This document shows, one piece after another, positions 5,151 to 34,955 of a stretch of DNA of 61,273 nt. The notes beneath the pieces were generated by a model. That model saw only the letters and a list, made by a program, of their open reading frames with translations, ran no database searches and was not told where the DNA came from. Origin of the DNA: a virus (lineage: Duplodnaviria > Caudoviricetes). Position numbers and translations under genes: made by a program. Position 1 is the first letter of the stretch; every line of letters starts with the position of its first letter. The DNA lies in IMG/VR virus record IMGVR_UViG_3300033145_000471, positions 1 to 61,273 of that record; one strand, 5' to 3'.

Positions 5151-5267
5151 ATGCCAGAAATCCGCTGTAAAAAATGTAACCGGTTACTAATGAAGGGCTG
5201 GATCGTGAAGGTCGAGATCAAGTGCCCGAAATGCCACAACATCATGATGTTCGAGGAAGAAAAATAA
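5151..5267 (+). CDS. com: Mu Com-like zinc-finger RNA-binding regulator (38 aa, not in the ORF track)
   Basis: MPEIRCKKCNRLLMKGWIVKVEIKCPKCHNIMMFEEEK matches the IRC..CN.LL...IKCP.C Com signature; AAGGA RBS. Confidence 0.85.
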   Translation: MPEIRCKKCNRLLMKGWIVKVEIKCPKCHNIMMFEEEK

Positions 5268-5278
5268 CACTGTAAGCT

Positions 5279-5321
5279 GAGCGGCGCGACCGCCCACGAC
5301 ATAGAGAGCTTTTCGAGAGCC
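5279..5321 (+). promoter_or_regulatory. Tandem 16-nt RNA hairpin motif (putative Com boxes), pair 1
   Basis: GA-GCGG-CGCGA-CCGC-C (5279-5294) and GA-GCTT-TTCGA-GAGC-C (5306-5321). Confidence 0.75.
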
Positions 5322-5358
5322 GAGCGAGATAGGTTAATCCCTGTCCGCTCGGCTTTTC
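5318..5358 (+). terminator. Intrinsic terminator overlapping the second hairpin
   Basis: AGCCGAGCG...CGCTCGGCT stem followed by T-run. Confidence 0.7.
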
Positions 5359-5377
5359 GCATTTAAGGAGCGAGAAA

Positions 5378-6184
5378 ATGTCAGAAGAAATCGTGAAGGA
5401 TATACCCGTTGAAAATCTGGAACGCCGGTTTGTGCCGCTTGCTGAAATCGAACTCCGCGCCGGGGAAGGTGATACGCCGGTCATCGAAGGCTATGCGGCC
5501 GTGTTCAACAAATGGGGATCGGAAGCCTATGGTTTCCGCGAGAAGATCGCCCCCGGCGCTTTCAAGAAAACAATCAAGGGCGGCGATGTTCGGGCGCTTT
5601 TTAATCATGACCCTAATCACGTCCTCGGCCGCCAGAGCAACGGCACGCTCACGCTGAAGGAGGATGACAGGGGACTGTCGATGCATACGGATATCAACGC
5701 CGATGACCCCGACGCCATGAGCGTATACGCCAAAGTGAGGCGCGGCGACGTCAACGGGCAGTCGTTCGGATTCGTGGTGAGAGAAGAAGAATGGAAGTAT
5801 TTCGACGACGACACAAAACTGCCCGAACGCATCATCCGTGAAGTTGATCTGTTTGATGTCGGGCCGGTAACGTTCCCGTTCTATGAGCAGACCGACGTTA
5901 CGGTTGCCCTGCGGTCGCTCGAAAGAAACAGGCCGCAGAATGACGACGACGACAAAACGGATACCCGCGAATTACTGAACGCAATAGGATCATTGCCGGC
6001 AGAAAACCTCGCAGAGCTTCGAGACGCAATTAATACAAGACTCGAATCAATAAATCCCGGGACCGTGCCCACGCCGGCCCAGGACGATAACCCCGACGAC
6101 GAACCCACGCCCACGCTGGACGCCAGACGGATAGCGCAATTACGGCGCATATGGAACCGCAAACGCAAAACCGAAAAAGCATAA
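5378..6184 (+). CDS. HK97-family prohead protease
   Basis: IEGYAAVFN, FREKIAPGAF, LFNHD, SFGF, VTFPFY. Confidence 0.95.
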   Translation: MSEEIVKDIPVENLERRFVPLAEIELRAGEGDTPVIEGYAAVFNKWGSEAYGFREKIAPGAFKKTIKGGDVRALFNHDPNHVLGRQSNGTLTLKEDDRGLSMHTDINADDPDAMSVYAKVRRGDVNGQSFGFVVREEEWKYFDDDTKLPERIIREVDLFDVGPVTFPFYEQTDVTVALRSLERNRPQNDDDDKTDTRELLNAIGSLPAENLAELRDAINTRLESINPGTVPTPAQDDNPDDEPTPTLDARRIAQLRRIWNRKRKTEKA

Positions 6185-6195
6185 GGAATTTCAAA

Positions 6196-7560
6196 ATGAC
6201 TATAAGAGAAATTCGCGCAAAACGCGCCGAAATCAGCAAGGAACTCGACGAGCTTCTGGGGGAAGATACCCTGACGGAAGATCAGGAGGCTCGTTATAAA
6301 GAGCTTGACGAGGAATATGACAAGCTCACCAAGGACATCGAGCGGCGTGAAAAGCAGGAATCCCGCAAGACAGACCTCGCCGCGTCCACAGACGACCCGA
6401 ACAAGATCGACGTCGACGACGGATTCCGCAATGTCAATGTTGGCGCGGACAGGGAAGAGCAGAAACCGTTTACCGAGCTTCGCGAACAGTTGCAGGCGAT
6501 AGTCGATTTTGCCGTTCACGGGCGCTTTGATAAACGGCTTGGCAGGCTCGCCGCGTATAATGACGACAATTTCAACCCGATTCGCAGCAACGCCGAAATC
6601 AGGGCTGCAGGCTCCGGCTCCATCGAGGCTACGGGCGCTTATGGCGGCTTTCTTCTCGAAACCGAGGTCGCGGATGGCCTCCTGGGGCGCACGTATGATA
6701 ACAACCAGGTTATCAGCCGATGTACCCGCCGGACGCTCACATCCAACGCCACATCCATTGAACTGAAGGGTGTGGATGAGTCCAGCCGCGCAACAGGCTC
6801 GCGTTTTGGCGGTGTCAGGGCTTATTGGGCTGGCGAGCTTGACCAGATGACCAGTTCGCGACCGAAATTCTACAAGGTGAAATTGACGCCGGAGAAACTT
6901 ACCGGTTTGTATTTCGCCTCTGATGAAATTCTGCAGGACTCCGGTATTCTTGCCGCCGAGGTCAATGACATGTTCGAGGAGGAGTTCGCCTTCACCATTC
7001 AGGACGCCGTTGTCGAAGGCGACGGTTCCGGTAAGCCCCTCGGGGCGGTGAACTCCGGTTGCAAGGTCGAAGTCTCCGCCGTGTCCGGGCAGGGATCCAC
7101 GACCTTCATTTACGAGAACGTGACTAACATGTGGGCACGCATGTGGGCGCCCAGCCGGAAGAACGCCGTGTGGTTCATTAACCAGGACACCGAACCCCAG
7201 TTATATACCATGAGTCTGCCGGTCGGTACCGGCGGTGCCCCGGTATATCTCCCGCCGAATGGTGCTGCTGACGCGCCTTTCGGTCGTCTGTTCGGCCGTC
7301 CGGTTATTCCCATCGAGCAGTGCTCCACGCTCGGTACGGCTGGCGACATACTGCTCGCCGATTTCTCGCAGTATTACATCGTGGACAAGGGCGGCATCAA
7401 CGGCGCGTCCTCGATCCACCTGAAGTTCGATTTCAACCAGACGACAATTCGCTGGATTTATCGCGTTGACGGCCGTCCGAAATGGAAAGATGCGCTCACG
7501 CCATTCAAGGGATCGAACACTCTTTCCCCGATCGTGACGCTCAGCTCGACGCGTACCTGA
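6196..7560 (+). CDS. Major capsid protein (HK97 fold, N-terminal delta domain)
   Basis: Coiled-coil N-terminus, GGFL, GDGSGKPLG, LFGRPV, ADFSQY, RVDGRP. Confidence 0.95.
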   Translation: MTIREIRAKRAEISKELDELLGEDTLTEDQEARYKELDEEYDKLTKDIERREKQESRKTDLAASTDDPNKIDVDDGFRNVNVGADREEQKPFTELREQLQAIVDFAVHGRFDKRLGRLAAYNDDNFNPIRSNAEIRAAGSGSIEATGAYGGFLLETEVADGLLGRTYDNNQVISRCTRRTLTSNATSIELKGVDESSRATGSRFGGVRAYWAGELDQMTSSRPKFYKVKLTPEKLTGLYFASDEILQDSGILAAEVNDMFEEEFAFTIQDAVVEGDGSGKPLGAVNSGCKVEVSAVSGQGSTTFIYENVTNMWARMWAPSRKNAVWFINQDTEPQLYTMSLPVGTGGAPVYLPPNGAADAPFGRLFGRPVIPIEQCSTLGTAGDILLADFSQYYIVDKGGINGASSIHLKFDFNQTTIRWIYRVDGRPKWKDALTPFKGSNTLSPIVTLSSTRT

Positions 7561-7593
7561 TGAAGTTTAACGGAAAATTCGGAGGTATAGAAA

Positions 7594-8076
7594 ATGGGTA
7601 AGGTCTGTATTCCTGAACAGTATAAACTTGTTCACGCGATAGCTCCGCAGTCTACAACGGTTGCGATTACGGGCGACTATATCAGCCTCAAAGACGCCGA
7701 GAGAGTAACCATTATCGCGGATTTCAACAACACCGGCACCGGCAAGGCGACGTATGTCACGGTCTACGAGGCGACGTCCACGACCGGGGCAGGCGCGGCG
7801 GCTACGACCGGTAACACCTATAAGGGCTGGCGTAATGCCGGGACAACCAGCACGGACACGCTCAGTGCCCAGACGGATGCGTATCGGTTCGCCACCACCA
7901 CCGACGCGACGTATCAGCAGATTGTCATTCAGGTCGATCCGAGTGACTTGACGGTCGGCTATGACTGTCTGAATGTCAGGACGACCACGGGCGAAACCAG
8001 TAATAGCGTGTCGATCGATTACGTCGTGCACACGAAGTACCCGGCCGCGACGCCCCCGGCTGTAATCAGCAGCTAA
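7594..8076 (+). CDS. Putative head decoration protein, Thr-rich beta-sandwich
   Basis: Immediately after the MCP, strong GGAGG RBS, Thr-rich. Confidence 0.6.
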   Translation: MGKVCIPEQYKLVHAIAPQSTTVAITGDYISLKDAERVTIIADFNNTGTGKATYVTVYEATSTTGAGAAATTGNTYKGWRNAGTTSTDTLSAQTDAYRFATTTDATYQQIVIQVDPSDLTVGYDCLNVRTTTGETSNSVSIDYVVHTKYPAATPPAVISS

Positions 8077-8084
8077 GGAGTGAC

Positions 8085-8336
8085 ATGAACGTACAATTGA
8101 CAAAACCGCGTCTCGGGTACAGCAAAGGCGCCGAACTCGATCTTCACCCCGTATGGGCGCGGCGCATGTATCGTGCGAAAGAATGTAAGCCTGTCAATGA
8201 GCGGGATTTACCGTTTTTGACCGGCGAAACAGACCGCATCGAAACAGCGTCCGTCGAACCACGCGAGGAAAAGGCCGTCAAGGCGCAGAACACACCGCGA
8301 AAACCGAGAAGGCGGCGTAGAAAAACAACGAAGTAA
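8085..8336 (+). CDS. Hypothetical protein with basic C-terminus
   Basis: AAGGAG RBS; head-module position. Confidence 0.6.
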   Translation: MNVQLTKPRLGYSKGAELDLHPVWARRMYRAKECKPVNERDLPFLTGETDRIETASVEPREEKAVKAQNTPRKPRRRRRKTTK

Positions 8337-8440
8337 TTCCTGCGGGGCGGGACAGCCTGTAATATGGCGGTGCCGCCCCTGAAAAAAGCGTAACGGGACG
8401 CTTCAGCGCATGAAGCGCATCCGGTGAAAGGATAAACAAT

Positions 8441-9115
8441 ATGCCTGCTACTAAGATTAAATCCACATGGAGTTCCGGCAACCTGATTTTCAAGGAAAGC
8501 GTTGCCGCGAATGGCGGACAGATCATTTTCGGCACCACCGGCAGCGGCGGTCTTGACATGAAGCTGTACGGAACGACCGGCAGCGTGTATGCGCTGTGGG
8601 ACGAGTCGGCCAATACGCTGATATTCGAAGGCGCCGATATCCGCCTGAATGACAGCGATTTTCTGAAACTCGGCGATTCCACTGACGCGTCATTGGCGTG
8701 GGACGGCTCGAAAATCGCCCTCACCGCAGCCGCCGCATCGACGTTCCAGATCGGCAGCACCGGAACGAATATCAATCCCAGCATCAAGGGCACGTTGGCT
8801 GTGCTTAAAGCCGTGACCGCATCAAGCAACGTCAGTATCAGCGGTGACGTAAGCGTGGCGAACGGCAAGGCGATACAGGGGTCGTCCACGGCAAGCGAGT
8901 CATTTTCGCTGAAAGCCTATACCACGGGCCAGACGGATATTCTCGAAGTTCAGAACTCGACCGGCAACGGCAACTATAAACTCGGTTTCTTCGCCGCCAC
9001 GCCTACGTCGAAGGCCGGCTCGATCGCCGATGCCACAACCCTGACCAATGTGATAACGGCGTGTAATTCGATCAAAAGCGCATTGGTTTCACTCGGTTTC
9101 ATCGCGTCAACGTAA
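8441..9115 (+). CDS. Putative head fibre/virion protein, Ser/Thr/Gly-rich
   Basis: Beta-rich composition; C-terminal LGFFAATP...ALVSLGFI segment. Confidence 0.55.
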   Translation: MPATKIKSTWSSGNLIFKESVAANGGQIIFGTTGSGGLDMKLYGTTGSVYALWDESANTLIFEGADIRLNDSDFLKLGDSTDASLAWDGSKIALTAAAASTFQIGSTGTNINPSIKGTLAVLKAVTASSNVSISGDVSVANGKAIQGSSTASESFSLKAYTTGQTDILEVQNSTGNGNYKLGFFAATPTSKAGSIADATTLTNVITACNSIKSALVSLGFIAST

Positions 9116-9167
9116 CGCAATAAAGGCGGGGCGTTAACAGCGTCCCGCCACAAAAACACGAGGTAGT

Positions 9168-10214
9168 ATGTTGAAAAAAAAGCGCGTTATTCTTATCGGT
9201 AAATCGGATTCATGGGAGAATGCGCCGAAATGCGGAAACTTCGACGTATGGGGCGTAAACGACCTGGTGACACATCGGGACGTGGACATGATTTTCGATA
9301 TGCATCAAATCGAAAAGCGATGGGACGCCACTATCGAAAATGATTTCATGAATAAACTTGTTGCGGTTCAGGGCGATGCAAAAGCGACAGAAATACTTCA
9401 TATCAAAATGGCGCTGCTGAAAACGGTAAGACGCGCGGAAGAACTTGGCATACAGCTTGTATCATTACAGGAACACCCGGATATCAGCAAAAACATCGTT
9501 GCGTATCCGTATAAGGAAATCGTTGACACATTCAGGACGGACTACTTCAGCAACACAATAGACTACATGCTCGCGTATGCGATTTGGGAAGGCTACACGC
9601 ATATCGACCTGTACGGCATTAACATGGCAATCGGCTCCGAAATGGAGTGGGAGAAGCCGGGGTGTGATTTCTGGACGGGCATGGCGCTCGGCCGCGGAAT
9701 CCGGGTGAACATCAAAAGTCACGTCAGTACCCTGATGAAGCCCGGACGCGGCGTGATATATGGATATGAAACAAAACCGTCTTTCGCGGAGGAAAGCAAC
9801 GTGGATGTCCAAGCGTTGAAGTTCAGTGTTATGGAGAGAGTTGTACTTACCAATATTATCCCGCCGCAGAAGGGCGATTACGAGAAAGTCAAATCAGTCA
9901 AAAAGCTGCGGGAAGAACTGGTATTTACGACCGAAGAGCGCGAAAAGCTCAATCTGCGACAGGGCGAAAGAGGAATGGTGTTGTGGGATGACGGCACGGA
10001 GTTTGAGAAGGAGATAGAGGTTAACGATTTCTCGCTTGGTGCCATCATCGAATCGCTCAAATGGGCATCCGACAAGGGCAATTTCGGCGAAGACCACATA
10101 CCCATCTACGAGCGGTTCGTCCATGACATCGGAGGAAGGCTCAAATACAACATCATCATATCCGAAAAAGACATACGGGCTTTCGACAAAAAGGAACGAA
10201 AATTTTTGAAATAG
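9168..10214 (+). CDS. Putative nonulosonate (sialyl/pseudaminyl) transferase, GT42/Maf-like N-terminal domain
   Basis: KRVILIGKSDS...FDVWGVND and YMLAYAIWEGYTHIDLYGIN resemble CstII/Maf motifs (VIIAGNGPS, A..LGY.EIYL.G.D). Confidence 0.55.
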   Translation: MLKKKRVILIGKSDSWENAPKCGNFDVWGVNDLVTHRDVDMIFDMHQIEKRWDATIENDFMNKLVAVQGDAKATEILHIKMALLKTVRRAEELGIQLVSLQEHPDISKNIVAYPYKEIVDTFRTDYFSNTIDYMLAYAIWEGYTHIDLYGINMAIGSEMEWEKPGCDFWTGMALGRGIRVNIKSHVSTLMKPGRGVIYGYETKPSFAEESNVDVQALKFSVMERVVLTNIIPPQKGDYEKVKSVKKLREELVFTTEEREKLNLRQGERGMVLWDDGTEFEKEIEVNDFSLGAIIESLKWASDKGNFGEDHIPIYERFVHDIGGRLKYNIIISEKDIRAFDKKERKFLK

Positions 10215-10232
10215 AGAACAGCGAGGTGAAAC

Positions 10233-10610
10233 ATGGCTGGAACGGTTGTACAGACACACCAGAAGTTTTCAACGGTGAAAAAGCTGACGTTTGATTGGGC
10301 ATCAAGCACAAGCGGCGCGGCAACTGCCAATACCACGGGTCTCATCACCGGCCTGATTAACAGGTATTTGTTTATACCTGATAGCGGCGGCACAGCGCCG
10401 ACGAGCAATTACGATGTTGTCGTGAATGATTCCGATAGCCAGGACGTTCTACAGGGCAAGGGTGCGAATCTATCAGCTTTGACCGCATCGGATATTGTCT
10501 GCGGAACGACAGGCAACCCCGCGCCAATTGCTGTGAGCGGGATATTGAGCCTGTCCGTCACGAACGCCGGAAACGCCAAGGGCGGCAAGGTCATACTCTA
10601 TTACAGGTAG
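10233..10610 (+). CDS. Putative virion structural protein, Ser/Thr-rich
   Basis: GAGG RBS; position before the connector; beta-rich. Confidence 0.55.
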   Translation: MAGTVVQTHQKFSTVKKLTFDWASSTSGAATANTTGLITGLINRYLFIPDSGGTAPTSNYDVVVNDSDSQDVLQGKGANLSALTASDIVCGTTGNPAPIAVSGILSLSVTNAGNAKGGKVILYYR

Positions 10611-11576: not shown

Positions 11577-11579
11577 CGG

Positions 11580-11906
11580 ATGAGAACGGGCAGACTCAAT
11601 AAGCAGGTAACGATACAATACAAAACCGTCACGCGGGCGGCCCCCGGTGACGAAAGCATCACGTGGAATGACGAGGATACCGTTTGGGGCAACTACCGGC
11701 CTCTGCGCGGGAAGGAATATTTCGCGGCGATGCAGACGCAGTCGGAAGTGACGGGTACTTGGACAATCCGCTACCGGCGCGGATTGACAGCGGCCAAGCA
11801 ACTGAAATACGACAACCGCATTTTCGAGATCGTCGCGGTCATTGACATTGACGAACAGCACCGGTTTCTGGAAATCGTCACGAAAGAGAAGTCATCCGAT
11901 GAATGA
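11580..11906 (+). CDS. Head closure / head-tail adaptor
   Basis: MRTGRLNKQVTIQ...PLRGKEYF...IRYR. Confidence 0.88.
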   Translation: MRTGRLNKQVTIQYKTVTRAAPGDESITWNDEDTVWGNYRPLRGKEYFAAMQTQSEVTGTWTIRYRRGLTAAKQLKYDNRIFEIVAVIDIDEQHRFLEIVTKEKSSDE

Positions 11907-12288
11907 AGTGCATGGGCTTGACGAACTGAACAGGAAATTTGAAATGCTTGCCAAAGTCGGTGAGGACAAGGGCGTCAGGGAGGGCGTACAGGGAATTGCC
12001 GAGGAAATGCGCGACGACATGCGGTCGAGAGTGCGGGTAAAGACCGGTCACCTGCGCGACGGTATTGTAGCGAAACCATTTCGCAAAACCGGCGAAAGCC
12101 TTTCGTTTGTTGCTATTCATTACGGCGTTGCACCGCACGCCCATCTTGTCGAATACGGCCACGGCGGCAATCATCCCGCGCCGCCACACCCGTTTTTTCG
12201 ACCGGTTGTAGACCAATTTCAGGGAATTTATCCAGAGCGAATGAATGTATTGCTGAACAGGCAAATACAAAGATGGTGGAATAAATAA
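11899..12288 (+). CDS. HK97 gp10-family tail component
   Basis: GLDEL, VKTGHLR, AHLVEYG, PPHPFFRP. Confidence 0.88.
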   Translation: MNEVHGLDELNRKFEMLAKVGEDKGVREGVQGIAEEMRDDMRSRVRVKTGHLRDGIVAKPFRKTGESLSFVAIHYGVAPHAHLVEYGHGGNHPAPPHPFFRPVVDQFQGIYPERMNVLLNRQIQRWWNK

Positions 12289-12677
12289 TGGCTAATATTG
12301 ACGACGCGATCTACTCACTGTTGACGGACAATGCCAGCTTGGCGGCACACGTACAGGAGCGCATTTATCCGAACATCATACCCGACAAGAGGCGGATGCC
12401 CGCCGTAGCGATTTACATGATAAGCCAGCCGAAGATCAGAACGATGGGCGCGTGTTCCGGCAATCCTCAGCACCCAAGATTTCAGATTTCGTGCTGGGGG
12501 AAGACGAAAAACGACGTGTTGGCCGTGGCCGGGGACGTGATTGCCGCGCTTGAAGACTATTCGGGCACTGTCGCGTCGGTGGCGGTCAAGCGCATCTATT
12601 ACGACGACGCAACGGACGATTACGATCACGAAACCAAAAGATTTGTGAGGCACTTGGACTTCATAGTCTGGTATTAA
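12288..12677 (+). CDS. Tail completion/terminator protein (DUF3168-like)
   Basis: RIYP...PAV...RFQISCW; position. Confidence 0.8.
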   Translation: MANIDDAIYSLLTDNASLAAHVQERIYPNIIPDKRRMPAVAIYMISQPKIRTMGACSGNPQHPRFQISCWGKTKNDVLAVAGDVIAALEDYSGTVASVAVKRIYYDDATDDYDHETKRFVRHLDFIVWY

Positions 12678-12691: not shown

Positions 12692-12732
12692 GAGCGGTTC
12701 GACCGCCATATAGATAGAGCTATTCAATAGCC
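12692..12732 (+). promoter_or_regulatory. Tandem 16-nt RNA hairpin motif (putative Com boxes), pair 2
   Basis: GA-GCGG-TTCGA-CCGC-C (12692-12707) and GA-GCTA-TTCAA-TAGC-C (12717-12732). Confidence 0.75.
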
Positions 12733-12765
12733 GACTTTACCGCATTACGCGGGGGTCGGCTTTTT
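12729..12765 (+). terminator. Intrinsic terminator overlapping the second hairpin
   Basis: AGCCGACTT...GGGTCGGCT stem followed by TTTT. Confidence 0.75.
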
Positions 12766-12782: not shown

Positions 12783-13514
12783 ATGGCAAAAGAAGTTTTA
12801 ACCAGTGTAAAGATTCTATACCAGCAATACGACCTGACAGGCGATCTGAACCAGGCGACGCTTCGGCTGCTGAAAGACGCGAAGGACTCCACGGTATTCA
12901 ACAGTTCGTCGATAGCCCGGCTTTCGGGTATGCGGGCGGTGGAGGCCACATTCGCGGGCTTTGCCGAGCATGACACCGGAAAGGTGAGCAAGGTCATTTA
13001 CGATGATCTCGGCACGGCGGACAGAATATTCACGTTTTGCCCGACCGGTTACGCGACAGGGGACTACGTGTACAGCACCAAAGCGGCGCATTTCCGCTAC
13101 GAGGAGGGCATGGAGGTCGGCGAGATGTATACGTTCGGCGGCGCGATGCTTTCCGGCGGTACGGCCATCGTTCGCGGGCGTGTAGCCGCAACCGGCGCGA
13201 AAACAGCATCGGGCGACGGCACAGCTTATGAACTCGGCGCCCTGACCTCAGGCAAAACGCTTTACGCCGCGGTGCACTGCACGGCGGTAAGCGGTTCAGG
13301 CCCGCCGACCTGCGACATCAAAATCCAGTCCGACGACGCCAGCGGTTTCGCAACGCCGACAGACCGCATCACGTTTTCAACTATTACGAATTCGGCGACC
13401 GCCGAATGGAGCACGTACACCACAACAACGGCAGAAACCTGGTGGCGCGCGACGTGGACGATTGCGGGCACCGTCCCAAGCTACACAATCTATGTCATCA
13501 TGGCAATACAATGA
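12783..13514 (+). CDS. Tail tube-like protein with an extra C-terminal beta-sandwich domain
   Basis: N-terminal half is paralogous to the next ORF (MAK.VL...DL...ARLSG). Confidence 0.6.
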   Translation: MAKEVLTSVKILYQQYDLTGDLNQATLRLLKDAKDSTVFNSSSIARLSGMRAVEATFAGFAEHDTGKVSKVIYDDLGTADRIFTFCPTGYATGDYVYSTKAAHFRYEEGMEVGEMYTFGGAMLSGGTAIVRGRVAATGAKTASGDGTAYELGALTSGKTLYAAVHCTAVSGSGPPTCDIKIQSDDASGFATPTDRITFSTITNSATAEWSTYTTTTAETWWRATWTIAGTVPSYTIYVIMAIQ

Positions 13515-16695: not shown

Positions 16696-16696
16696 A

Positions 16697-29179: not shown

Positions 29180-29424
29180 TGGACGATCCAGTTATCACCG
29201 AATCGGAACTGTTCGCTGAAATCGATAAAATCTACAACAAGAACACTACACCGAAACCGTTGTTGACGGACAGGCAGTTTGCCGCGATTGAGTACGCCCG
29301 TTCAAAAAAGCCGCCGATGTCGTGGAGCCAAATTAAGAAAATGATGGAAGAACTTGGGCTTGGCGATCTCCCGGAAACAACGCTTATCGGGAAGTATAAA
29401 CGGGAAAAGGAACGACGGGCATGA
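29179..29424 (+). CDS. Hypothetical small DNA-binding protein
   Basis: GGAGG RBS; HTH-like C-terminal half. Confidence 0.5.
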   Translation: MDDPVITESELFAEIDKIYNKNTTPKPLLTDRQFAAIEYARSKKPPMSWSQIKKMMEELGLGDLPETTLIGKYKREKERRA

Positions 29425-29426
29425 AT

Positions 29427-29601
29427 GGGGGCGACATGGTTTCGACTGCGGCAATGCCCCGGTAAGCGCCTCTGGCTGACTTCGCCGTATCGACTGGTGC
29501 GGAACATGCGGTCGCGCGATAGTGGCCGTGCCGGTCATGCGTAATTCTTACCGGTTCCGCGTTACCGCAGGACGCGCGTTCGAGCCAAACGCCCTCTACA
29601 A
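29427..29601 (+). ncRNA. Miniature/degenerate tmRNA-like RNA (~175 nt)
   Basis: 5' GGGGGCGACATGGTTTCGAC; long helix 2 (29446-57/29559-70, 29459-66/29547-54); 3' GACGCGCGTTCGAG...CGCCCTC. Confidence 0.65.
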
Positions 29602-29852
29602 TAAAATGAGGTGTCTACCCAGTGTAGGCGCTCTATCGAGGGTTTGGTGGTTGTCCCGGCTTGGCAAAACAACCGCCGCTATTAACTTTCAGATGTCAAG
29701 CAATCCTTGACAGCTCAGGTGTTGCAGAAATTGCACCAACTGAAAAGCCAGACATTTTTAATTGCCATTAATTTGTAACTTCATACCACAACACAACTAC
29801 TGTGTGACATTTTCAGAGACATTCTCAGGGACATTAACGGTTCGTAAGAGAG

Positions 29853-30038
29853 GTGATGCGATTGCCGATAAGCTTCATTGGTGCGGACGGGAAAACTCAC
29901 ATACTCGAAGACGAAGAACGACAGCAATGCGAAATATTTGATCGCGTGATGGGATACTTCAGGCCGGTATCCGATTGGAACATCGGGAAACGACAGGAGC
30001 ATCGAGATAGAAAGAGGTTCAACAGCAGACAGTTTTAG
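29853..30038 (+). CDS. Stand-alone NrdD C-terminal glycyl-radical domain
   Basis: CEIFDRVMGYFRPVSDWNIGKRQEHRDRKRF. Confidence 0.85.
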   Translation: MMRLPISFIGADGKTHILEDEERQQCEIFDRVMGYFRPVSDWNIGKRQEHRDRKRFNSRQF

Positions 30039-30145
30039 CGGGTTTGAGCTCAAAACCAATAGCGCCCCTGACAGTAAGCGTTGCCGACAATCCGGGTAAC
30101 GACGAACTCAGGGGCTATTTTTTTGATAAAAAGTGAAAAAAAGAC

Positions 30146-30174
30146 TTGACAAAGCACGTGCGTATGCATATATT
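30146..30174 (+). promoter_or_regulatory. Sigma70-type promoter
   Basis: TTGACA-N17-TATATT; palindromes GCACGTGC and TATGCATA in the spacer. Confidence 0.75.
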
Positions 30175-30216
30175 GACTTTCAGCAAGGAGAGAAAACCAA
30201 AAACAAGGAGAAGAAA

Positions 30217-30486
30217 ATGAGGTCGATCAACTTAACCGAATATCGGGAAACTGCGCCAGACGGCGAATGGTATATCGGCACAGCACGTGGAGTGTTTCTT
30301 GTCGCTTGGGTTGATGCCCAATACTGGGTTGGTACGAAAGAAGGAAACGGTGGATTCGGCCAGTCGTTTTGTTGCCACGGAAATGACACGCTGTATTCGA
30401 CTCGCAACGCGGCGCAACAAGCCCACGATGATTACACAAAAAAACTGAACGATTATATGAAATCTTTTGAAACGGCACAATCCTGA
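30217..30486 (+). CDS. Hypothetical protein
   Basis: AAGGAG RBS downstream of the promoter. Confidence 0.6.
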   Translation: MRSINLTEYRETAPDGEWYIGTARGVFLVAWVDAQYWVGTKEGNGGFGQSFCCHGNDTLYSTRNAAQQAHDDYTKKLNDYMKSFETAQS

Positions 30487-30644
30487 GGGGCGGGGCGAAA
30501 GCCCTGTTAAAGGACACGGCGAGTCCCAAGTCTCGCCAATCTTTGAAAATCAAATAACGCGCCCCGTGCAAACGAAATCGAAAGTGACGGGACAACAGGA
30601 CGCGCACCCCGGCGGATGTTGTAGAAGTACAGCAAGGAGAAAGA

Positions 30645-30860
30645 ATGAAAATATTAAAAGAATTTACTACCATTTATCGCAAAACGGGGAAACACAGAAA
30701 AAAGTGTTCGGTCTGCGGGAGGTTAATAAACGACGGAGACCGGATAGTGGCGCGGTTAATCCAACAAGAAAAGTATTACCCGGTTAAAGGTATTATGAAA
30801 TTCAGCACTTGGAAGTTTATGCATGAGAACGAAGAAGAACCGAAAGGGGAGGGGCAATGA
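30645..30860 (+). CDS. Hypothetical protein with CxxC
   Basis: AAGGAG RBS. Confidence 0.55.
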   Translation: MKILKEFTTIYRKTGKHRKKCSVCGRLINDGDRIVARLIQQEKYYPVKGIMKFSTWKFMHENEEEPKGEGQ

Positions 30861-31048
30861 AACAACGTGACTGGCCGACGTACATACGGGGCCTGATTGA
30901 AAAGGCGGGTCTCACCCAAGCGCAGTTCGCCCGTGAGATCGGCGTCGATCAGGCAACGGTCACGCGCTGGCTGAACGGATCGACGAAGCCGCGGGCGGGG
31001 CTGACGCAGAGGGCCGTGGTAAATTTTGCCAAAAAGATTGGGGGGTGA
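30857..31048 (+). CDS. XRE-family HTH regulator
   Basis: GLTQAQFAREIGVDQATVTRWLNGSTKP. Confidence 0.9.
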   Translation: MKQRDWPTYIRGLIEKAGLTQAQFAREIGVDQATVTRWLNGSTKPRAGLTQRAVVNFAKKIGG

Positions 31049-31049
31049 C

Positions 31050-31349
31050 ATGAAAAAAGAGAATATCCACATTGTTCATGTTCGGGTAATTAACGGCGAC
31101 GTATATGTATCCTCATTATCCGAGCACCCCAGCCTCAAAGAAGCAAAAGTGGGGAAAATTATCGACCACACCCTTGACTGGCAGGTATGGAGCAAGGTCA
31201 CGGTGCTTGACCTTGCGAAGGTGAAAGACGCCGATGTATACCCGCCGGAGCAGACGGGCTACCTTGTCCCATCGTTCAATCTTTTCCCATCCATCGGCGA
31301 TGGAAAATGTCGATTATCTCCAATGCTCATGGGAATGGTGAATGTTTAA
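31050..31349 (+). CDS. Hypothetical protein
   Basis: ORF directly after the HTH gene. Confidence 0.5.
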   Translation: MKKENIHIVHVRVINGDVYVSSLSEHPSLKEAKVGKIIDHTLDWQVWSKVTVLDLAKVKDADVYPPEQTGYLVPSFNLFPSIGDGKCRLSPMLMGMVNV

Positions 31350-31605
31350 AACGTGACTAAAAACGTGACTAATCCGCTTTGTTCACTAAGTATGTTCAGA
31401 TGAAAACCAGCGCAAAACGTGACTACGGGCACAAAAGAGGGGCCGCTGATTGGCCCCTTGCTGCTTGTAAGTCCTTGTTTTTTAATGGTACCGGGAACGG
31501 GAATCGAACCCGTACAGGCTTTCACCCCCGAGATTTTAAGTCTCATAGAAAGAGTAACAATAACAACGTGATACAGACAGCACGGTCACGCTGTTAGTCA
31601 CGAAT
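31348..31605. mobile_element. attP with integrase arm-type sites
   Basis: AAAACGTGACTA at 31348, 31360, 31414; inverted copies at 31584 and 31594, flanking a tRNA fragment next to the int stop. Confidence 0.85.
31486..31544 (-). other. attP core: 3' half of tRNA-Leu(UAA)
   Basis: Minus strand GAGA-CTTAAAA-TCTC, long variable arm, GGGTTCGATTCCC, ends ACCA; 5' half absent. Confidence 0.88.
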
Positions 31606-32643
31606 TGCCCTTTTCCGTGGTAATTTGTGTACCTTTTCTGGGTGGTAATACCCTTCTGTGACGCGAAATGTCGAATGGTCAAGGTAGTTCATCACCTCAA
31701 TAGGGTCGGCGCCTTCGTTCAGGCTGTCGGTCGCGAACGCATGGCGAAGCGTTTTCATCGGCAGGCTGTCGGGCAGACCCGCTTTTCGTCTCCAGCGGAG
31801 AAACGTTTTCGACAGCGTGTCGCGGCGGCAGATGTTGAACGGCTGGTTGCCGCGTTTCGTTTCAATGAAGTAACGAAATTCCTCCTTCACCTCTTCCGGT
31901 ATCTCCTTCCAGCGTTTTCTCTGATCGCTCATTTTTACATTCATTGGGCGAAATAACCCTTTCTCCAAATCCACATCCTTGCGCTCCAGTTCGAGTATTT
32001 CCCGTGCCCGCCGGCCGGTGTATGCCAGAATCTTGAATATCCGGACGGCATCCTGGCTGCGGGCCTCTTTCATCGTCTGCCAGAGGATATCCGCCTGTTC
32101 CCGCGTGATGTTCTCGGTCAGGTAATCCGTTTCCCGCACCCGCTTGAACCGCACGAACGGATTGCGCCCGATGATTTCCTCGTCCACAAGGCGGGAAAAG
32201 ATTGCCTGGAGCATCCGCAACCGGCTGTTGATCGTCGCCGGGCGGACGTTACGGGAAGTGAGATAGGTCTTGTACCCCGGGATGTGGGGGCGCGCTGAAA
32301 TATCGGCAAGGGGGAAGTCGGGGCCGAGATAGCCCGTCAGGTCTTTCAGCGCCTCACAGTACTTCTCGATTGTGGTGCCGTGGAGATGGTCGCGTTCAAG
32401 CCGCAAAGGAATCCACTCGGTAAGCCACGTGAGCGTTTCTCGACCTGGGGCGGGTGTCGGGTCAGGTGCAAGGTTTAAGTGGCTTAAAACGGCTCTTTCG
32501 GCTTCTTCTTTCGTGTAATCCGCGACAGTCAGGCCGATGTATTTACCGGAGCGGCGTATTCGTCCATCCTTGGCATACCATGAGAACCACCAGTAGGGGC
32601 TGTCCTTGCGGCGGTAGACTGTGGGCTTTTTGTTCATAGCCAA
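31594..32643 (-). CDS. int: Tyrosine integrase
   Basis: YTGRR..E, K.LRH, LDHST...T..Y catalytic residues. Confidence 0.93.
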   Translation of the reverse strand: MAMNKKPTVYRRKDSPYWWFSWYAKDGRIRRSGKYIGLTVADYTKEEAERAVLSHLNLAPDPTPAPGRETLTWLTEWIPLRLERDHLHGTTIEKYCEALKDLTGYLGPDFPLADISARPHIPGYKTYLTSRNVRPATINSRLRMLQAIFSRLVDEEIIGRNPFVRFKRVRETDYLTENITREQADILWQTMKEARSQDAVRIFKILAYTGRRAREILELERKDVDLEKGLFRPMNVKMSDQRKRWKEIPEEVKEEFRYFIETKRGNQPFNICRRDTLSKTFLRWRRKAGLPDSLPMKTLRHAFATDSLNEGADPIEVMNYLDHSTFRVTEGYYHPEKVHKLPRKRAIRD

Positions 32644-32671
32644 TCAAGCTCGTGCCAATTCCCCGGCTGTG

Positions 32672-32747
32672 TGGTGCCCCCGACCGGATTCGAACCGATA
32701 GTACAGGCTTAGCGGGCCCATGTTCTATCCAGTTGAACTACGAGGGC
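32672..32747 (-). tRNA. tRNA with GCU anticodon on a tRNA-Arg-like body (C33; possibly pseudo)
   Basis: 76-nt cloverleaf GCCCTCG-TA-GTTC-AACTGGATA-GAAC-A-TGGGC-CCGCTAA-GCCTG-TACT-ATCGG-TTCGAAT-CCGGT-CGGGGGC-ACCA. Confidence 0.8.
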
Positions 32748-32751
32748 ACCG

Positions 32752-32791
32752 AAATAAAAATAGGGGCATGGTTATAAGAACCACACCCCTA
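32752..32791 (-). terminator. Intrinsic terminator in the leader of the tRNA-int unit
   Basis: Minus TAGGGGTGTGGTT-CTTAT-AACCATGCCCCTA-TTTTT. Confidence 0.7.
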
Positions 32792-32848
32792 CGTCTTATA
32801 ATACTGATAAGTCCGAACCCAACAACTGGACTCAGGCCCGCTTTTGAT

Positions 32849-32877
32849 AATATCGGCATAATAATATAAAATGTCAA
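32849..32877 (-). promoter_or_regulatory. Putative promoter for the tRNA-int unit
   Basis: Minus TTGACA-N17-GATATT. Confidence 0.5.
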
Positions 32878-32994
32878 GTAATTATTTGACACCATTCTTT
32901 CTTTCAAGCCAAAGAGAGTATGCCGCAATGCGACGGTTGACTGTCGGTGGGGTGGGGACACGGGCTTATTTCCCTGTCGGCGTGACCGATATAA

Positions 32995-33303
32995 TCATCT
33001 CAATTTATTATGGCAGTGTGGGCAAATAATAGCTTCTCGCCGGATATATTCGGCGCAATAGGGGCACTTGACCATACCACGGCGAAACATGCGGTGCTCG
33101 TATCCTGTTTCATCTCGATCAAGAAGGAGTGAATGCGGCAAAGCGATAATGAACAATAGTGCGCCGTATAACCACCATGTAAGAAAATCGTGCCCCTTGT
33201 TATAGGCGATGCGCGCAGGCAGTAAACCGATAATCACAGCGGAAAACAGTGTGATAAATATATAAACGACAACAACCCATTGAGCAATATTTTGTGCAGC
33301 CAT
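32995..33303 (-). CDS. Membrane protein with C-terminal double zinc ribbon
   Basis: Two TMs, IA..KG.....W..YG, CPYCAE...CPHC. Confidence 0.8.
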   Translation of the reverse strand: MAAQNIAQWVVVVYIFITLFSAVIIGLLPARIAYNKGHDFLTWWLYGALLFIIALPHSLLLDRDETGYEHRMFRRGMVKCPYCAEYIRREAIICPHCHNKLR

Positions 33304-33879
33304 TTATTCATCCATTATGATGCGAGCCGTGAAATTGCACTCGACGGTGATTTTTTTACCTTCATCAAAATCAATCCCGTGGAACTCACCCTTTATTGAT
33401 CCGCTTAATGTTTCATCCGTTATTTCATCAATACGGGCTACACCAGAATATATTGTAAACCAAGCCGAGTTTTCGTCACGTTCCGTCGCCTCGCGTGTTG
33501 TTGACGGCCCCCAACTTAATTTAATGTGCGCATCCTCATGACGATTCGTTCTATATTTTGTTTCGTATTGATATTCACCCGGTTCGGTTATTGGCAAATA
33601 TACTATCTGCAAGTATGCGTAGTGTTTGGGGTCGTCGTCAATGATATGAAAGAAATAGTAATCCGGCTTCTTGTCCAGGCGCGCTAATTTTGTCAGCGAT
33701 TCTTTTATGCCCCAATTCCCTATCACGTCCCCGCGCACCTCTATTGTCCCATATGTCGGCGGCGTCGGTGAATCACCAATTAATATTGTGGCGTCGTTTT
33801 TCGAGTTGGTGATTGTTGGCAAATTACAAGACAATGCAGCAAGTACCGCAATTATCAGAAACAGAGATGTTAGCCGCAT
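33304..33879 (-). CDS. Lipoprotein, candidate superinfection exclusion
   Basis: Lipobox LAALSC after a hydrophobic leader; downstream of the repressor. Confidence 0.65.
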   Translation of the reverse strand: MRLTSLFLIIAVLAALSCNLPTITNSKNDATILIGDSPTPPTYGTIEVRGDVIGNWGIKESLTKLARLDKKPDYYFFHIIDDDPKHYAYLQIVYLPITEPGEYQYETKYRTNRHEDAHIKLSWGPSTTREATERDENSAWFTIYSGVARIDEITDETLSGSIKGEFHGIDFDEGKKITVECNFTARIIMDE

Positions 33880-33984
33880 GGTATTCTAAGCCCCTATGAT
33901 GAATAGTTCATTCGTGCTTGCGAGATTCTTTTCTCCAGTTTACACTAATTCATATGTTATTCAAAATATAATATATTGTTTTTG

Positions 33985-34437
33985 TCACCCAGTTCGTATA
34001 TTTTTTTTCGCGTCCCCCGATTCCTCTGCGCAGACGCGGACCAACTCCCGTATAGCTCGCAACTTCTCGCCCCGCACATTTATTAATAGCCCCGCTATTT
34101 CATGCCGTATTTTCTCATCGGAGCGAGCATGTTCCCCGGGCGTACCTGCCGAGATAGTGCCCTGTAACGGTAGATCGCGCGTAGGGTCAAGCTCGTGATC
34201 GCGGACGGATTCAGGTTCAGAAGGAGGCCCCTTATAGAAATCAGATACCGACACGCCCAGCGCACGGGCTATCCTCTTGACCGTCAAGTTCCCCGCATTT
34301 CTATTCCCGGTCATGATTTTAGACATGTATGAAGGGGATATGCCTGCATCACGAGCAAGATCAACTTGTTTATAAGACTTTCCCATATGAGAAGTTTTAT
34401 AGCCAAGCCATTTACTTATTAGTCCTATAATATCCAT
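33985..34437 (-). CDS. cI: CI-like repressor (XRE HTH)
   Basis: QVDLARDAGISPSYMSKIMTG...IARALGVSVSDF; divergent from the cro-like gene. Confidence 0.8.
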   Translation of the reverse strand: MDIIGLISKWLGYKTSHMGKSYKQVDLARDAGISPSYMSKIMTGNRNAGNLTVKRIARALGVSVSDFYKGPPSEPESVRDHELDPTRDLPLQGTISAGTPGEHARSDEKIRHEIAGLLINVRGEKLRAIRELVRVCAEESGDAKKNIRTG

Positions 34438-34515
34438 AGCTTATCTCTCTTATGAGAAATATTTTGTATAAATATCAAAATAATTGTTGACAAGATAGCG
34501 CATATGAGATATCTT
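34381..34515 (+). promoter_or_regulatory. Rightward early promoter with three operator-like sites
   Basis: TTGACA(34487)-N17-TATCTT(34510); TCTCATATGAGA-like palindromes at 34381, 34446, 34498. Confidence 0.75.
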
Positions 34516-34534
34516 ATACCCCAGATGAACAACA

Positions 34535-34547
34535 GCTCTTTGAAAAC
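34535..34547 (+). promoter_or_regulatory. boxA-like antitermination element
   Basis: GCTCTTTGAAAAC just downstream of the rightward promoter. Confidence 0.6.
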
Positions 34548-34924
34548 TGAAAAGGCGGGTTTTCCTTCCCGGTGGCGGTCGTGCCGCTCTTCCCTCCGCA
34601 ACATGCTGGCATGGAGGACCAACACCAACACGCAACAGACCGGAGAGATCACACCCGCCTTTTCAATAACGACGAAGAAAGGGGCGGGTTTTTCCTGCCG
34701 ATGGCGCTCGAAGCGCTCGTTCGCCCTCGTGTGCAAGCACGGGCGACCAATGCCGACACACTACTGATCGACAGGGTCACACCCGCCCCGCTCAACGCGG
34801 TTTTATAAGAGGCGGTGATCACCGTCAACGGCGCTCGAAGCGCTCTAGCCCCCGCAATGTGCCAGTATGGGGGGGCCACTACCGACACGCTGCAGGTCGG
34901 CGGCGAAACAACCGCCTCTTATAA
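34548..34924 (-). ncRNA. Array of three ~128-nt cloverleaf RNA units, each carrying the 16-nt hairpin motif
   Basis: Closing stems 34548-60/34653-65, 34681-89/34781-89, 34803-16/34911-24; motif at 34574, 34703, 34830; conserved CCA...CC.ACAC.C..C.G linker. Confidence 0.75.
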
Positions 34925-34926
34925 TC

Positions 34927-34955
34927 AATATAACCGCACAACACACATCAGTCAA
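34927..34955 (-). promoter_or_regulatory. Leftward promoter initiating at the edge of the RNA array
   Basis: Minus TTGACT-N17-TATATT; predicted start ~34920. Confidence 0.7.

Follow-up and report, generated by a model that had tools for sequence, protein, structure and literature searches.

Candidate Com-responsive RNA hairpins at late-operon terminators and in the immunity region of a Caudoviricetes phage

What does a Com-like protein control in a phage in which one and the same hairpin motif recurs in the late operon and in the immunity region? Com has long been regarded as a curiosity of the mom gene of phage Mu, where a single protein acts on a single hairpin and a single translational target. 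The question is raised by a viral sequence of 61,273 nucleotides (Duplodnaviria; Caudoviricetes; IMG/VR record IMGVR_UViG_3300033145_000471), which was analysed over its whole length and is referred to as the window. As described in the original prediction, a 16-nt motif occurs seven times in this sequence, at positions 5279, 5306, 12692 and 12717 on the plus strand and at 34574, 34703 and 34830 on the minus strand. The motif, GAGC-NN-YNCRA-NN-GCC (strict pattern GAGCNNYNCRANNGCC), has the form of a hairpin, in which GA precedes a 4-bp stem, the loop of 5 nt ends in C-R-A, and a C follows. Its seven matches compare to 0.11 ± 0.31 expected from 100 dinucleotide-preserving shuffles, none of which contained more than one, and to a single match of the same motif read backwards; without constraints on the loop, 18 matches are found against 6.9 ± 2.4 expected. 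The proposed compensatory changes in the stem are also observed, both unconstrained positions being paired in all seven copies (GG/CC in three, GC/GC in two, TA/TA in one and TT/GA, with one G-U pair, in one). The plus-strand copies are intergenic, located between portal/com and the prohead protease and between the tail-completion protein gp17 and the major tail protein, and the minus-strand copies are spaced by 127 and 129 nt between cI-like and cro-like HTH genes of the immunity region, in both cases as anticipated. At gathering scores, a search of the entire window against Rfam 15 retrieved only a tRNA and Twister-P5, leaving the motif and the surrounding structures described below unmatched.

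The first pair of hairpins begins 11 nt past the stop codon of a com-like gene (5151..5267, plus strand), which directly follows the portal gene (3135-5141) and encodes a zinc ribbon of 38 residues. This protein, the sole com match in the whole record, is recognized by the Pfam profile PF10122 (Zn_ribbon_Com; E=7.7e-8, 32.1 bits, cut-off 22.9) and shares 39% of its residues with Mu Com (alignment A3). It contains the expected CxxC...CxxC arrangement with a conserved N-terminal knuckle, and C6, C9, C25, C28 and L13 are invariant in alignment A3, the cysteines across 20 sequences including Mu Com. Among ten com-like reading frames of related modules, five reach the profile cut-off, two fall below it and three are unmatched. 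A search of the PDB by sequence retrieved no Com relative. Modelled as a homodimer, the window protein obtains a score of 0.67 compared to 0.01 for the best control, a mark attained by 20 of 30 proteins whose solved structures contain a pair of one chain, and by one of 23 whose structures contain a single chain. The model runs agree in 100% of their contacts, with a partner pLDDT of at least 89. Against the model, the predicted interface encompasses residues 13-23, the region that is most variable in length among relatives. From this model, two copies of Com on their operators would probably act as a dimer.

To relate the motif to the protein, we have searched viral contigs in both directions. 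A pattern specifying only the two hairpins retrieved 37 viral stretches, 31 of which were kept as real modules, and in 29 of these a com-like CxxC...CxxC reading frame ends -1 to 18 nt upstream. The remaining two (L078 and L086) are, like the second module of the window, not adjacent to com and were taken as second sites; a full record is available behind L078 (G006), which contains one com gene with its own variant module elsewhere. Conversely, a pattern encoding only the peptide IRCKKCNRLL retrieved 13 loci, with the module being found at 12 of them. Eleven of the 13 loci are full matches to the covariance model R1, comprising five that were already known and six of the eight new ones at E<=4e-12, while at one locus two operators are separated by about 130 nt and at another (L266) a lone Mu-like hairpin is found without terminator. 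The proposed co-occurrence of motif and com in related phages thus holds both ways (29/31; 12/13). The upstream neighbour varies, being a portal gene in the window, L070, L085 and L092 and the large terminase in L072, and the combination of com, operators and terminator is shared by phages with the unrelated portal families PF04860, PF16510 and PF12236. In three further loci (L253-L255), a single hairpin is located within the 3' part of com next to a second hairpin in which the start codon of a DNA methyltransferase is hidden, and Burkholderia phage AP3 carries a variant hairpin in a com-methyltransferase arrangement; these loci represent the classical organization. Rfam 15 left the module unmatched in eight related loci, and in E-value mode returned nothing beyond chance-level matches for module 1 and the immunity-region copies.

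The motif also agrees with what has been described for Com itself. The available text of a SELEX study with a Com zinc finger reports the motif NGAGNNCC(N)2-3GAGNNCCNN and the protection of the loop GA by Com (PMC6483171). Read as GAG-CN-NY-NC-RAN-NG-CC, the 16-mer aligns in register with the motif given there, from which it departs at several positions (N6/Y7, N12). The Mu site indeed has the form given in the original prediction, GA-AUGC-CUGCGA-GCAU-CC, and both the sequence of the hairpin and its placement at the end of com fit a Com-family operator, which makes it a candidate site at the level of sequence. In light of the co-occurrence in both directions, the register with the selected motif and the resemblance to the Mu site, it is very likely that the Com-like protein has its RNA operator in this hairpin.

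The four late-operon copies form two modules of the same build: a spacer of about 10 nt, whose last base is A, separates operator 1 from operator 2, which leads into an intrinsic terminator. In module 1, operator 1 (5279..5294, plus strand) contains a GC-rich 4-bp stem with the loop CGCGA and is present in the MFE fold. Operator 2 (5306..5321, plus strand), the candidate anti-terminator hairpin, contains a weak stem with a U-A and a U-G pair and the loop TTCGA, and is absent from the same fold because the terminator occupies its 3' strand. This terminator (5319..5357, plus strand; -28.6 kcal/mol, z = -5.6) starts its 5' arm at G14 of operator 2 and ends with the 3' arm CGCTCGGC followed by TTTT, beyond which are found a ribosome binding site (RBS) and the start of the prohead protease at 5378. 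The heptamer GAGCGAG appears in the 5' arm of this terminator and again at the RBS of the protease. Module 2 is organized similarly, with operator 1 at 12692..12707, operator 2 with the loop TTCAA at 12717..12732, and an overlapping terminator at 12729..12765 (-20.1 kcal/mol, z = -4.6) that is followed by TTTTT, all on the plus strand, and it precedes the major tail protein gene (12783-13514; phrog_9522, E=2.8e-33). The modules match R1 with 52.8 and 58.3 bits, respectively. Both terminators have loops too long for a simple terminator scanner, which flagged neither. There is no downstream hairpin hiding the start codon of a modification gene as in Mu; instead, the hairpins are followed by U-runs, with the RBS located beyond and structural genes coming next.

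The same geometry is found across the related modules. Within 23 distinct modules, all 184 cells at free stem positions are paired, compared to 29-54% in slid controls, and 28 double-sided changes were counted, a result reached by none of 500 shuffles. The loops conform to the 5-nt consensus YNCRA, and G-U pairs (at 5306 and in L077, L070, L261 and L263) are confined to one strand. Operator 1 is generally a strong GC-rich stem and operator 2 a weak AU-rich one, which by itself amounts to only -1.6 to -4.3 kcal/mol, whereas the terminator form reaches -15.4 to -32.3 kcal/mol in the 21 modules folded whole and -23.2 and -25.6 kcal/mol in L072 and L076, which were folded separately. The overlap with the terminator that had been proposed is real, since in all 23 modules the MFE terminator stem, which borders the U-run, incorporates G14-C16 of operator 2. 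With these nucleotides shared between operator 2 and the terminator base, either of the two can form but never both.

Because the overlap is universal, antitermination is the most economical interpretation of this organization. The best reading is that Com would be an ANTAR-like antiterminator, where we infer that this Com binds, in which direction it acts and that it does so as a dimer. In the proposed mechanism, the far more stable terminator forms would prevail without Com and transcription would halt after terminase, portal and com. Once Com accumulates, both operators of the nascent transcript would be held by two copies of the protein, probably as a dimer; with operator 2 held, the 3 to 7 bp beside the U-run would be lost and RNA polymerase would continue into the genes for protease and capsid. 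An identical switch would operate at module 2, in front of the major tail gene. Unless timing is important, it is counter-intuitive that a terminator should precede the genes of the most abundantly needed proteins, those of capsid and tail tube.

In the immunity region, each of the three copies is a lone operator carried by one of three tandem RNAs of about 125 nt, which are predicted to fold as three-way junctions in the sense of the repressor. The unit transcribed first, U3 (34800..34928, minus strand; operator 34830-34845), consists of a closing stem, a second stem, a long G-U-rich hairpin and the operator hairpin; its single operator matches R1 with 21.5 bits (E=2.9e-5). It is followed by U2 (34672..34796, minus strand; operator 34703-34718; 19.5 bits) and by U1 (34545..34668, minus strand; operator 34574-34589; 18.0 bits), the last before the repressor gene, whose closing stem is succeeded by UUUU. 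The units fold with -62 to -65 kcal/mol on the minus strand versus -48 to -59 kcal/mol, and double-sided changes are found at 14 of 48 consensus pairs among the three, with many G-U pairs. In the MFE and consensus folds of each unit, the operator hairpin, which is of the operator-1 type, is present without competing structure. Reading frames over the units are out of register, given the spacings of 129 and 127 nt. A sigma-70-like site (TTGACT-17-TATATT; 34927..34955, minus strand), a consensus match in 10 of 12 positions, predicts a start at the 5' end of U3, whereas a second such site of equal match (TTGACA-17-TATCTT; 34487..34515, plus strand) faces the array and would transcribe it antisense toward the cro-like gene. 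The array is flanked by the cI-like HTH gene downstream on the same strand (33985..34437, minus strand; Pfam HTH_3, E=2.1e-8), with a weaker promoter-like site beside it (34493-34465), and on its other side by the cro-like gene (34961..35209, plus strand; HTH_3 22.5 bits, just below the cut-off of 23). The array RNAs would start at the minus-strand site and run toward the repressor gene with their operators unobstructed, and would thus display multiple accessible copies on a predicted non-coding transcript, as expected for a protein sponge. We tentatively consider that the array is a Com-binding RNA that keeps the late terminators closed while its promoter is active. The overall proposal, antitermination by Com at the late modules with the array as likely Com-binding RNA, appears reasonably probable to us.

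Several other explanations have to be weighed against this proposal. Com might bind both hairpins and act post-transcriptionally, by protecting the 3' end of the terminase-portal-com transcript and so regulating the stability of its own message, or by activating translation of the next gene as in Mu, with the terminator serving as ordinary operon boundary. The available text of PMC6483171 presents translational activation as the sole function shown for Com, the operators fall into the would-be 3' UTR of com, and the 3' arm of the terminator could pair with either copy of GAGCGAG. Such a role is nevertheless unlikely in view of the RBS being located beyond the U-run, the existence of second-site modules without upstream com, and the overlap of operator 2 with the terminator base in 23 of 23 modules, as a plain mark of the 3' end requires neither this conserved exact overlap nor a weak operator-2 stem. 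The joint travel of com, operators and terminator among unrelated portal families would equally be expected of a mobile com-plus-terminator cassette, or the hairpins might be read by another factor such as a host protein or nuclease, with Com acting elsewhere. We judge this very improbable, considering the resemblance of the 16-mer to the Mu site and its register with the in vitro selected motif, as far as the latter is described in the available text (PMC6483171), the single copies at the known site of Com action in com-methyltransferase loci, and the modules without adjacent com that occur in records with one com elsewhere. That the motif works as double-stranded, palindromic protein-binding site has hardly any probability: its stem is a partial palindrome and the array is located where operators would be expected, but the stem positions covary instead of staying conserved, G-U pairs appear on one strand only, the loop is asymmetric, every copy is oriented with the local transcript and the array units fold better on one strand by 6-14 kcal/mol.

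A different function of the array itself, in which the units are Com-responsive terminators in the repressor leader or, in a switch with convergent promoters, RNAs that act by base-pairing or as antisense with the operator hairpin being secondary, is possible although we doubt it. In the leader version, late Com would change repressor expression via the unit terminators, and each unit ends in a closing stem, with UUUU following that of U1 just before the repressor gene; yet a good U-run is found at U1 only, and the operator hairpin competes with no helix of the unit, leaving no obvious switch by Com. The promoter-like sites facing each other across the array would generate two transcripts that can pair along some 400 nt, the long hairpins have C-rich apical loops resembling anti-Shine-Dalgarno seeds, and the 3' arm of U1 shares 13 nt of complementarity with an HTH gene at 30898-30910, but such complementary matches are few and predicted from sequence. 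The units are structured repressor-sense RNAs that display the operator, but the proposed decoy array is not supported by comparison: no second array was found in 9 fuller viral records or in four collection scans. A search for relatives of the repressor-like protein also returned none. A type III toxin-antitoxin ToxI array was considered and ruled out, as the units measure about 127 nt and the downstream gene encodes an HTH protein and no endoribonuclease toxin.

Since Com and its hairpin operator were already known, the term 'new regulatory system' used in the original prediction is too strong, whereas the coupling of Com to terminators of structural operons and the array look new; we found no published report of Com used at such terminators. 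The data suggest that the Com-RNA pair has been rewired onto intrinsic terminators within structural operons, and this in many uncultured phages whose portals belong to unrelated families. In its most far-reaching form, which we consider rather unlikely, Com zinc ribbons would constitute a widespread, unrecognised class of antiterminators, whose dimer clamps two hairpins and whose level times virion assembly, and the array sponge would confer repressor-independent RNA immunity via three high-affinity operators. If true, this would add a third kind of late-gene antitermination in phages, beside N- and Q-type factors and put RNAs, and the dual-hairpin principle of ANTAR proteins would have been reinvented independently by a protein of 38 residues. 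If the array were a sponge, it would offer temperate phages a new route to secure lysogeny and provide a natural precedent, beyond the eut system, for RNA decoys against antiterminators. Because the system is small and self-contained, its components being a terminator, an RNA of 45 nt and a protein of peptide size, it is directly testable in vitro, and the module could serve as an orthogonal transcription switch.

Among known systems, the closest parallel is found in Mu. The window protein shares with Mu Com the PF10122 family, the four cysteines and the N-terminal IRCxxCxxLL, and its operator, located at or just past the end of com, resembles those of Mu com/mom and of Mu- and P2-like com-methyltransferase operons in the GA, the 4-bp stem, the CGA-ending loop and the following C(C). 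In both cases expression is blocked when a second hairpin forms that is in contact with the operator, and the opening of the hairpin beside its operator by Mu Com is paralleled by the proposed switch. In contrast to Mu, where the second hairpin hides a start codon, it is here an intrinsic terminator with U-run, preceded by two operators instead of one with loops of 5 instead of 6 nt. The genes under control encode capsid and tail proteins and not a DNA-modification enzyme, and the phage of the window carries an integrase and no transposase.

With respect to mechanism, the module resembles the targets of ANTAR proteins such as EutV, AmiR and NasR, which in the available text of the cited sources are tandem dual hairpins, the second being exclusive with a terminator, recognized by a protein thought to be dimeric (PMC3369931; bioRxiv 10.1101/2020.09.27.315978), and both share conserved loop residues in two small hairpins and a proposed dimer. 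Unlike ANTAR, which is a coiled-coil domain on a response regulator binding hexaloops, the protein described here is a 38-residue zinc ribbon and the loops are YNCRA pentaloops. The Com module thus works like the ANTAR family but is no member of it. As Com is encoded by the phage and contains no signal-sensing domain, its amount would itself be the signal. In phage lambda, the N protein acting on boxB, and in HK022 the put RNAs, similarly let polymerase pass terminators in a timed cascade via a phage factor or RNA on nascent hairpins. While N and put modify polymerase to pass distant terminators, the hairpin described here physically overlaps each terminator, and there is no boxA-like element, no arginine-rich peptide and no GNRA-like loop as in the N/boxB system. 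Finally, the RNAs EutX/Rli55 and CsrB/RsmZ titrate the ANTAR protein EutV and CsrA, respectively, and the array would share with them several operators of a regulator on a dedicated non-coding RNA, with sequestration as its presumed consequence. Its scaffold differs from EutX and CsrB in being built of three three-way junctions, each of about 125 nt and arranged in tandem within the immunity region of a phage, and for the titration of an antiterminator EutX/Rli55 provides the direct precedent.

The phage is of the integrase-type temperate kind and not a Mu-like transposable one. In its linear record of 61,273 bases, with an estimated completeness of 77%, Pfam and PHROGs place on the plus strand the large terminase (1357-2973), the portal (3135-5141), com, encoding a 38-residue zinc ribbon of the Com family (5151-5267; match to PF10122 at 32.1 bits, cut-off 22.9), the prohead protease (5378-6184), the capsid (6151-7560), tail-completion gp17 (12288-12677) and the major tail protein (12783-13514). 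The integrase is found on the minus strand (31594-32643), and in the immunity region a cI-like HTH gene (33985-34437, minus strand) and a cro-like HTH gene (34961-35209, plus strand) point away from each other. A tRNA-Ser(GCT) on the minus strand, directly adjoining the integrase gene (the two together at 31594-32747), may belong to the attachment-site region or be a phage-borne tRNA. Positions 1-25000 find no match among cultured phages by megablast. As further features, we note a type-P5 twister ribozyme match at 30482-30535 on the plus strand (50.3 bits, gathering score 37.6), between an ORF at 30133-30486 and one for a 71-residue zinc-ribbon-like protein at 30645-30860, and an A-rich tandem repeat at 54948-55178 with periods of 45, 55 and 100 nt in about two to five copies.

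The original prediction had placed seven copies of a hairpin motif in this genome, and a scan of the whole window with the strict form GAGCNNYNCRANNGCC recovers all seven at exactly those places. Chance would provide 0.11 ± 0.31 copies (100 dinucleotide-preserving shuffles of the window), the motif read backwards matches once, and in every copy the two free positions of the stem are able to pair, in one via G-U; the observation is thus confirmed and statistically strong. The four late copies resolve into two copies of one module, the first following com and the second preceding the major tail gene. Each begins with operator 1, whose 4-bp stem is GC-rich. Some 10 nt of spacer, ending in A, lead to operator 2, whose stem is weak, and immediately thereafter comes an intrinsic terminator, its 5' arm starting at G14 of operator 2. 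A simple terminator scanner flagged neither terminator because their loops exceed 8 nt, and we therefore relied on RNA folding, in which operator 1 and the terminator form in both modules and operator 2 never does.

To find the module in other phages, we searched a viral collection with a pattern describing only the two hairpins at a distance of 6-16 nt, which matched 37 stretches. Six were excluded before counting, as they lie in repetitive coding sequence (L084, L095, L102), contain stems without pairing (L080, L096) or, in case of L094, pair but lack both a terminator and com and were left as ambiguous. The 31 stretches kept comprise 21 distinct sequences, all of them full modules with terminator. 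In 29, an ORF with a CxxC...CxxC pattern and the Com N-terminus (IRCxxCxxLL) is located upstream of operator 1, ending at a distance of -1 to 18 nt. The exceptions without adjacent com, L078 and L086, look like second sites, as module 2 of the window is. For L078 this was checked in its fuller viral record (G006), where the only com lies in another place and precedes a module variant whose loop has 6 nt. A comparable arrangement of one com with two modules, 4.8 kb apart, is found in the MAG contig L187. When ten com-like ORFs were scanned with PF10122, five reached the cut-off, two fell below and three gave no match; all align with Mu Com and retain its four cysteines. A scan of genome contigs gave at least 135 matches, and among the matches listed 15 pair fully and only L153, L164 and L187 (two copies) contain real modules. 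Rfam holds no family for module or array, and a blastn search with one module returned as sole match 27 nt in a ligase gene. Two module-bearing stretches carry other RNAs, a group I intron in L097 (9804-10095, 72.3 bits) and an int-alpA RNA in L090 (394-458, 37.7 bits).

In the opposite direction, a DNA pattern encoding only the peptide IRCKKCNRLL identified 13 loci, five already known and eight new. Six of the latter contain a full match to R1, the covariance model of the module, with 42-54 bits. In a seventh (L264; module at 1616-1800, plus strand), about 130 nt of additional sequence separate operator 1 from operator 2 and the terminator, and the eighth (L266) has one Mu-like hairpin with the terminator absent. 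The insert of L264 is GC-rich and looks structured, and R1 matches operator 1 only. Some variants among these modules, such as a 6-nt loop and GAGU stems containing U-G pairs, were out of reach of the RNA pattern, and the association of com and module is therefore not an artefact of the search. The predicted co-occurrence of motif and com in relatives is hence borne out, and sequence evidence from both directions argues strongly for a link between hairpin and Com.

Protein-level searches were less productive. A tblastn search with the window Com yielded nothing at E<=1e-3, and the longer Com of L264 retrieved 59 weak records, of which three were inspected: two (AP3, MF417929) proved to be com-methyltransferase loci, and the third, BCPST, lacks the module. 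Relatives of the prohead protease define 60 loci, all of at most 60% identity. The motif with its proper loop is absent from every one of them, and a com-like ORF is present in L010 alone, at another position of that locus; such distant loci are not informative. Twelve of these loci (L046, L050-L052, L056, L057, L060, L062-L065, L067) carry Ogr/Delta-like zinc-finger ORFs of 51-69 residues just 3' of the protease gene, which is another small zinc-finger gene in a similar place of the head operon.

Among 23 distinct modules the terminator switch geometry is universal: G14-C16 of operator 2 are located inside the minimum-energy terminator stem, and the 3' arm of the terminator abuts a U-run, in 23 of 23. 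On its own, operator 2 folds with -1.6 to -4.3 kcal/mol, and the terminator form with -15.4 to -32.3 kcal/mol in the 21 modules folded whole and with -23.2 and -25.6 kcal/mol in the two that were truncated in the whole-module fold. Both helices pair in 184 of 184 cells; as the search pattern fixed the rest, only four inner pairs were free to vary, and these contain 28 double-sided changes. None of 500 shuffles reached the observed pairing or covariation score, and sliding the partner by 1-3 columns reduces pairing to 29-54%. The inner pairs are mostly G-C in operator 1 and mostly U-A in operator 2. A hairpin that is conserved and covarying, and yet outcompeted when left alone, is as expected for a protein-dependent anti-terminator. 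The stop codon of com (5265-5267 in the window) overlaps operator 1 or resides up to 18 nt upstream in the com-bearing loci, so that a terminating ribosome would cover operator 1. This hints that folding of the operator is coupled to the translation of com, or that the action is in cis.

The operator has a counterpart in known Com biology. In the Mu record, the sequence GA-AUGC-CUGCGA-GCAU-CC directly precedes the hairpin hiding the mom start codon, confirming the form of the site that had been given in the prediction. For the Com zinc finger of a Haemophilus Mu-like phage, a SELEX study reports a core GAG(N)2CC, a bipartite motif NGAGNNCC(N)2-3GAGNNCCNN, a preference for the hairpin form and protection of the loop GA upon binding (PMC6483171). 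The selected 16-mer can be aligned in register with GAG-CN-NY-NC-RAN-NG-CC, and some natural operators, for example in L078 and G006, fit the motif letter for letter. In L253-L255, one copy of the same hairpin inside the 3' part of com adjoins a second hairpin that spans the ATG of a DPPY methyltransferase gene. A variant is arranged likewise in Burkholderia phage AP3, where the annotation names com a translational regulator and a methyltransferase gene follows; operons of this type are described in PMC3299994. The hairpin shared by modules, Mu and methyltransferase loci thus points to an operator common to the whole Com family, with a differing output structure.

Modelled as a homodimer with a 20-row alignment, the window Com scored 0.67 versus 0.01 for the best control, a mark reached by 20 of 30 proteins whose solved structures are pairs of one chain and by 1 of 23 solved as single chains. 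Model runs agree in 100% of contacts with a partner pLDDT of at least 89. The modelled interface (residues 13-23) falls in the part whose length varies most among family members, and a PDB sequence search found no Com relative, its best match being a ribosomal zinc ribbon (E=0.013). We regard a Com dimer as a supported guess.

The most likely reading of the sequence data, which we consider probable, is that Com acts as an antiterminator. By holding both operators of the nascent RNA, it would deprive the terminator of its basal pairs. The placement of the modules suggests a timer. Com is found directly 3' of the portal in four loci (window, L070, L085, L092), and the next gene that can be named is the protease in the window, L075 and L081, the capsid in L103 and in addition the major tail protein; L072 deviates, with the large terminase upstream, and most module neighbours match no family.

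The remaining motif copies belong to an array of three units of about 125 nt (U3, U2 and U1) between the cI-like and cro-like genes, spaced by 129 and 127 nt. The units fold on the minus strand with -62.2, -63.3 and -64.7 kcal/mol (z-scores of -4.4 to -5.5) and more weakly on the plus strand (-48.2, -54.4 and -58.6 kcal/mol). Their consensus structure, based on three sequences only, has 48 pairs, many of them G-U and 14 kept via double-sided changes, and combines the operator hairpin with a closing stem, a second stem and a long hairpin whose apical loop is C-rich. These apical loops (34545-34928, minus strand; UCCUCC, UCGCCC and CCCCCCC) resemble the anti-Shine-Dalgarno seeds of base-pairing sRNAs. 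The 5' arm of the U1 closing stem (34654-34668) is identical over 15 nt to part of an HTH ORF (30857-31048) on its coding strand, at 30896-30910 on the plus strand, by which the 3' arm of U1 and its U-run become complementary to the HTH mRNA over 13 nt; roughly estimated, chance would seldom produce a match of this kind in 61 kb. Several other interpretations were abandoned: a tRNA-like fold does not fit on the 3' side, a repeat-encoded peptide would be out of frame at the observed spacings, and a type III antitoxin and DNA operators were considered and dropped.

Structurally the array is real, and its function rests on analogy. That it might serve as a sponge titrating Com, as had been proposed, is plausible for this single instance, though we would not bet on it. 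RNAs that sequester a regulator in this manner are EutX/Rli55, which titrates the antiterminator EutV, and CsrB, which titrates CsrA. R1 aligns all three array operators to operator 1 (18-21.5 bits) and, unlike operator 2, they compete with no other helix in the unit. Slightly less probable, and in our view doubtful, are Com-responsive leader terminators, or antisense or base-pairing RNAs of a convergent-promoter switch. A putative promoter on the minus strand (34955-34927, matching the consensus at 10 of 12 positions) ends just before U3 and is faced by an equally good match on the plus strand (34487-34515), with a weaker one beside the repressor gene; other candidate base-pairing targets of the array amount to scattered 10-11-mers.

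The original prediction had expected both motif and array to accompany com in relatives, which holds for the motif in other phages but not for the array, as judged from nine fuller viral records, which contain module operators only, and four collection scans. A search of viral contigs for two operators spaced by 100-130 nt gave 23 stretches, all coding or GC-rich chance matches that mostly do not pair, and a scan for closing stem plus operator gave eight stretches without array, three of them com-methyltransferase loci. In metagenome contigs, operator-1-type pairs gave at least 132 matches, with 35 pairing among the matches listed; six of these 35 were inspected and none was array-like. L304 and L390 contain a different hairpin array, with at least eight operator-shaped hairpins GAGCGGTCCGACCGC[CT] every ~42 nt (L304, ~4770-5200, minus strand; L390, ~640-1000, plus strand), upstream of a cysK-like gene in a setting that looks bacterial rather than phage. 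For the repressor-like protein, neither viral nor metagenome contigs yielded a relative. One DNA sequencing run covers a small share of the region in four short contig pieces, none extending past 34592, and no RNA run is listed.

Full-text searches, which did not extend to subscription journals and supplementary files, returned no paper that links Com to termination, and the terms 'zinc', 'phage' and 'bacteriophage' are absent from a 2025 review of RNA-binding antiterminators. The proposed mechanism is like that of ANTAR proteins, antiterminators acting on RNA according to a dual-hairpin principle (PMC3369931). Com-RNA regulation itself is known, and we class the modules as a variant, in which this regulation would be used in an ANTAR-like way.
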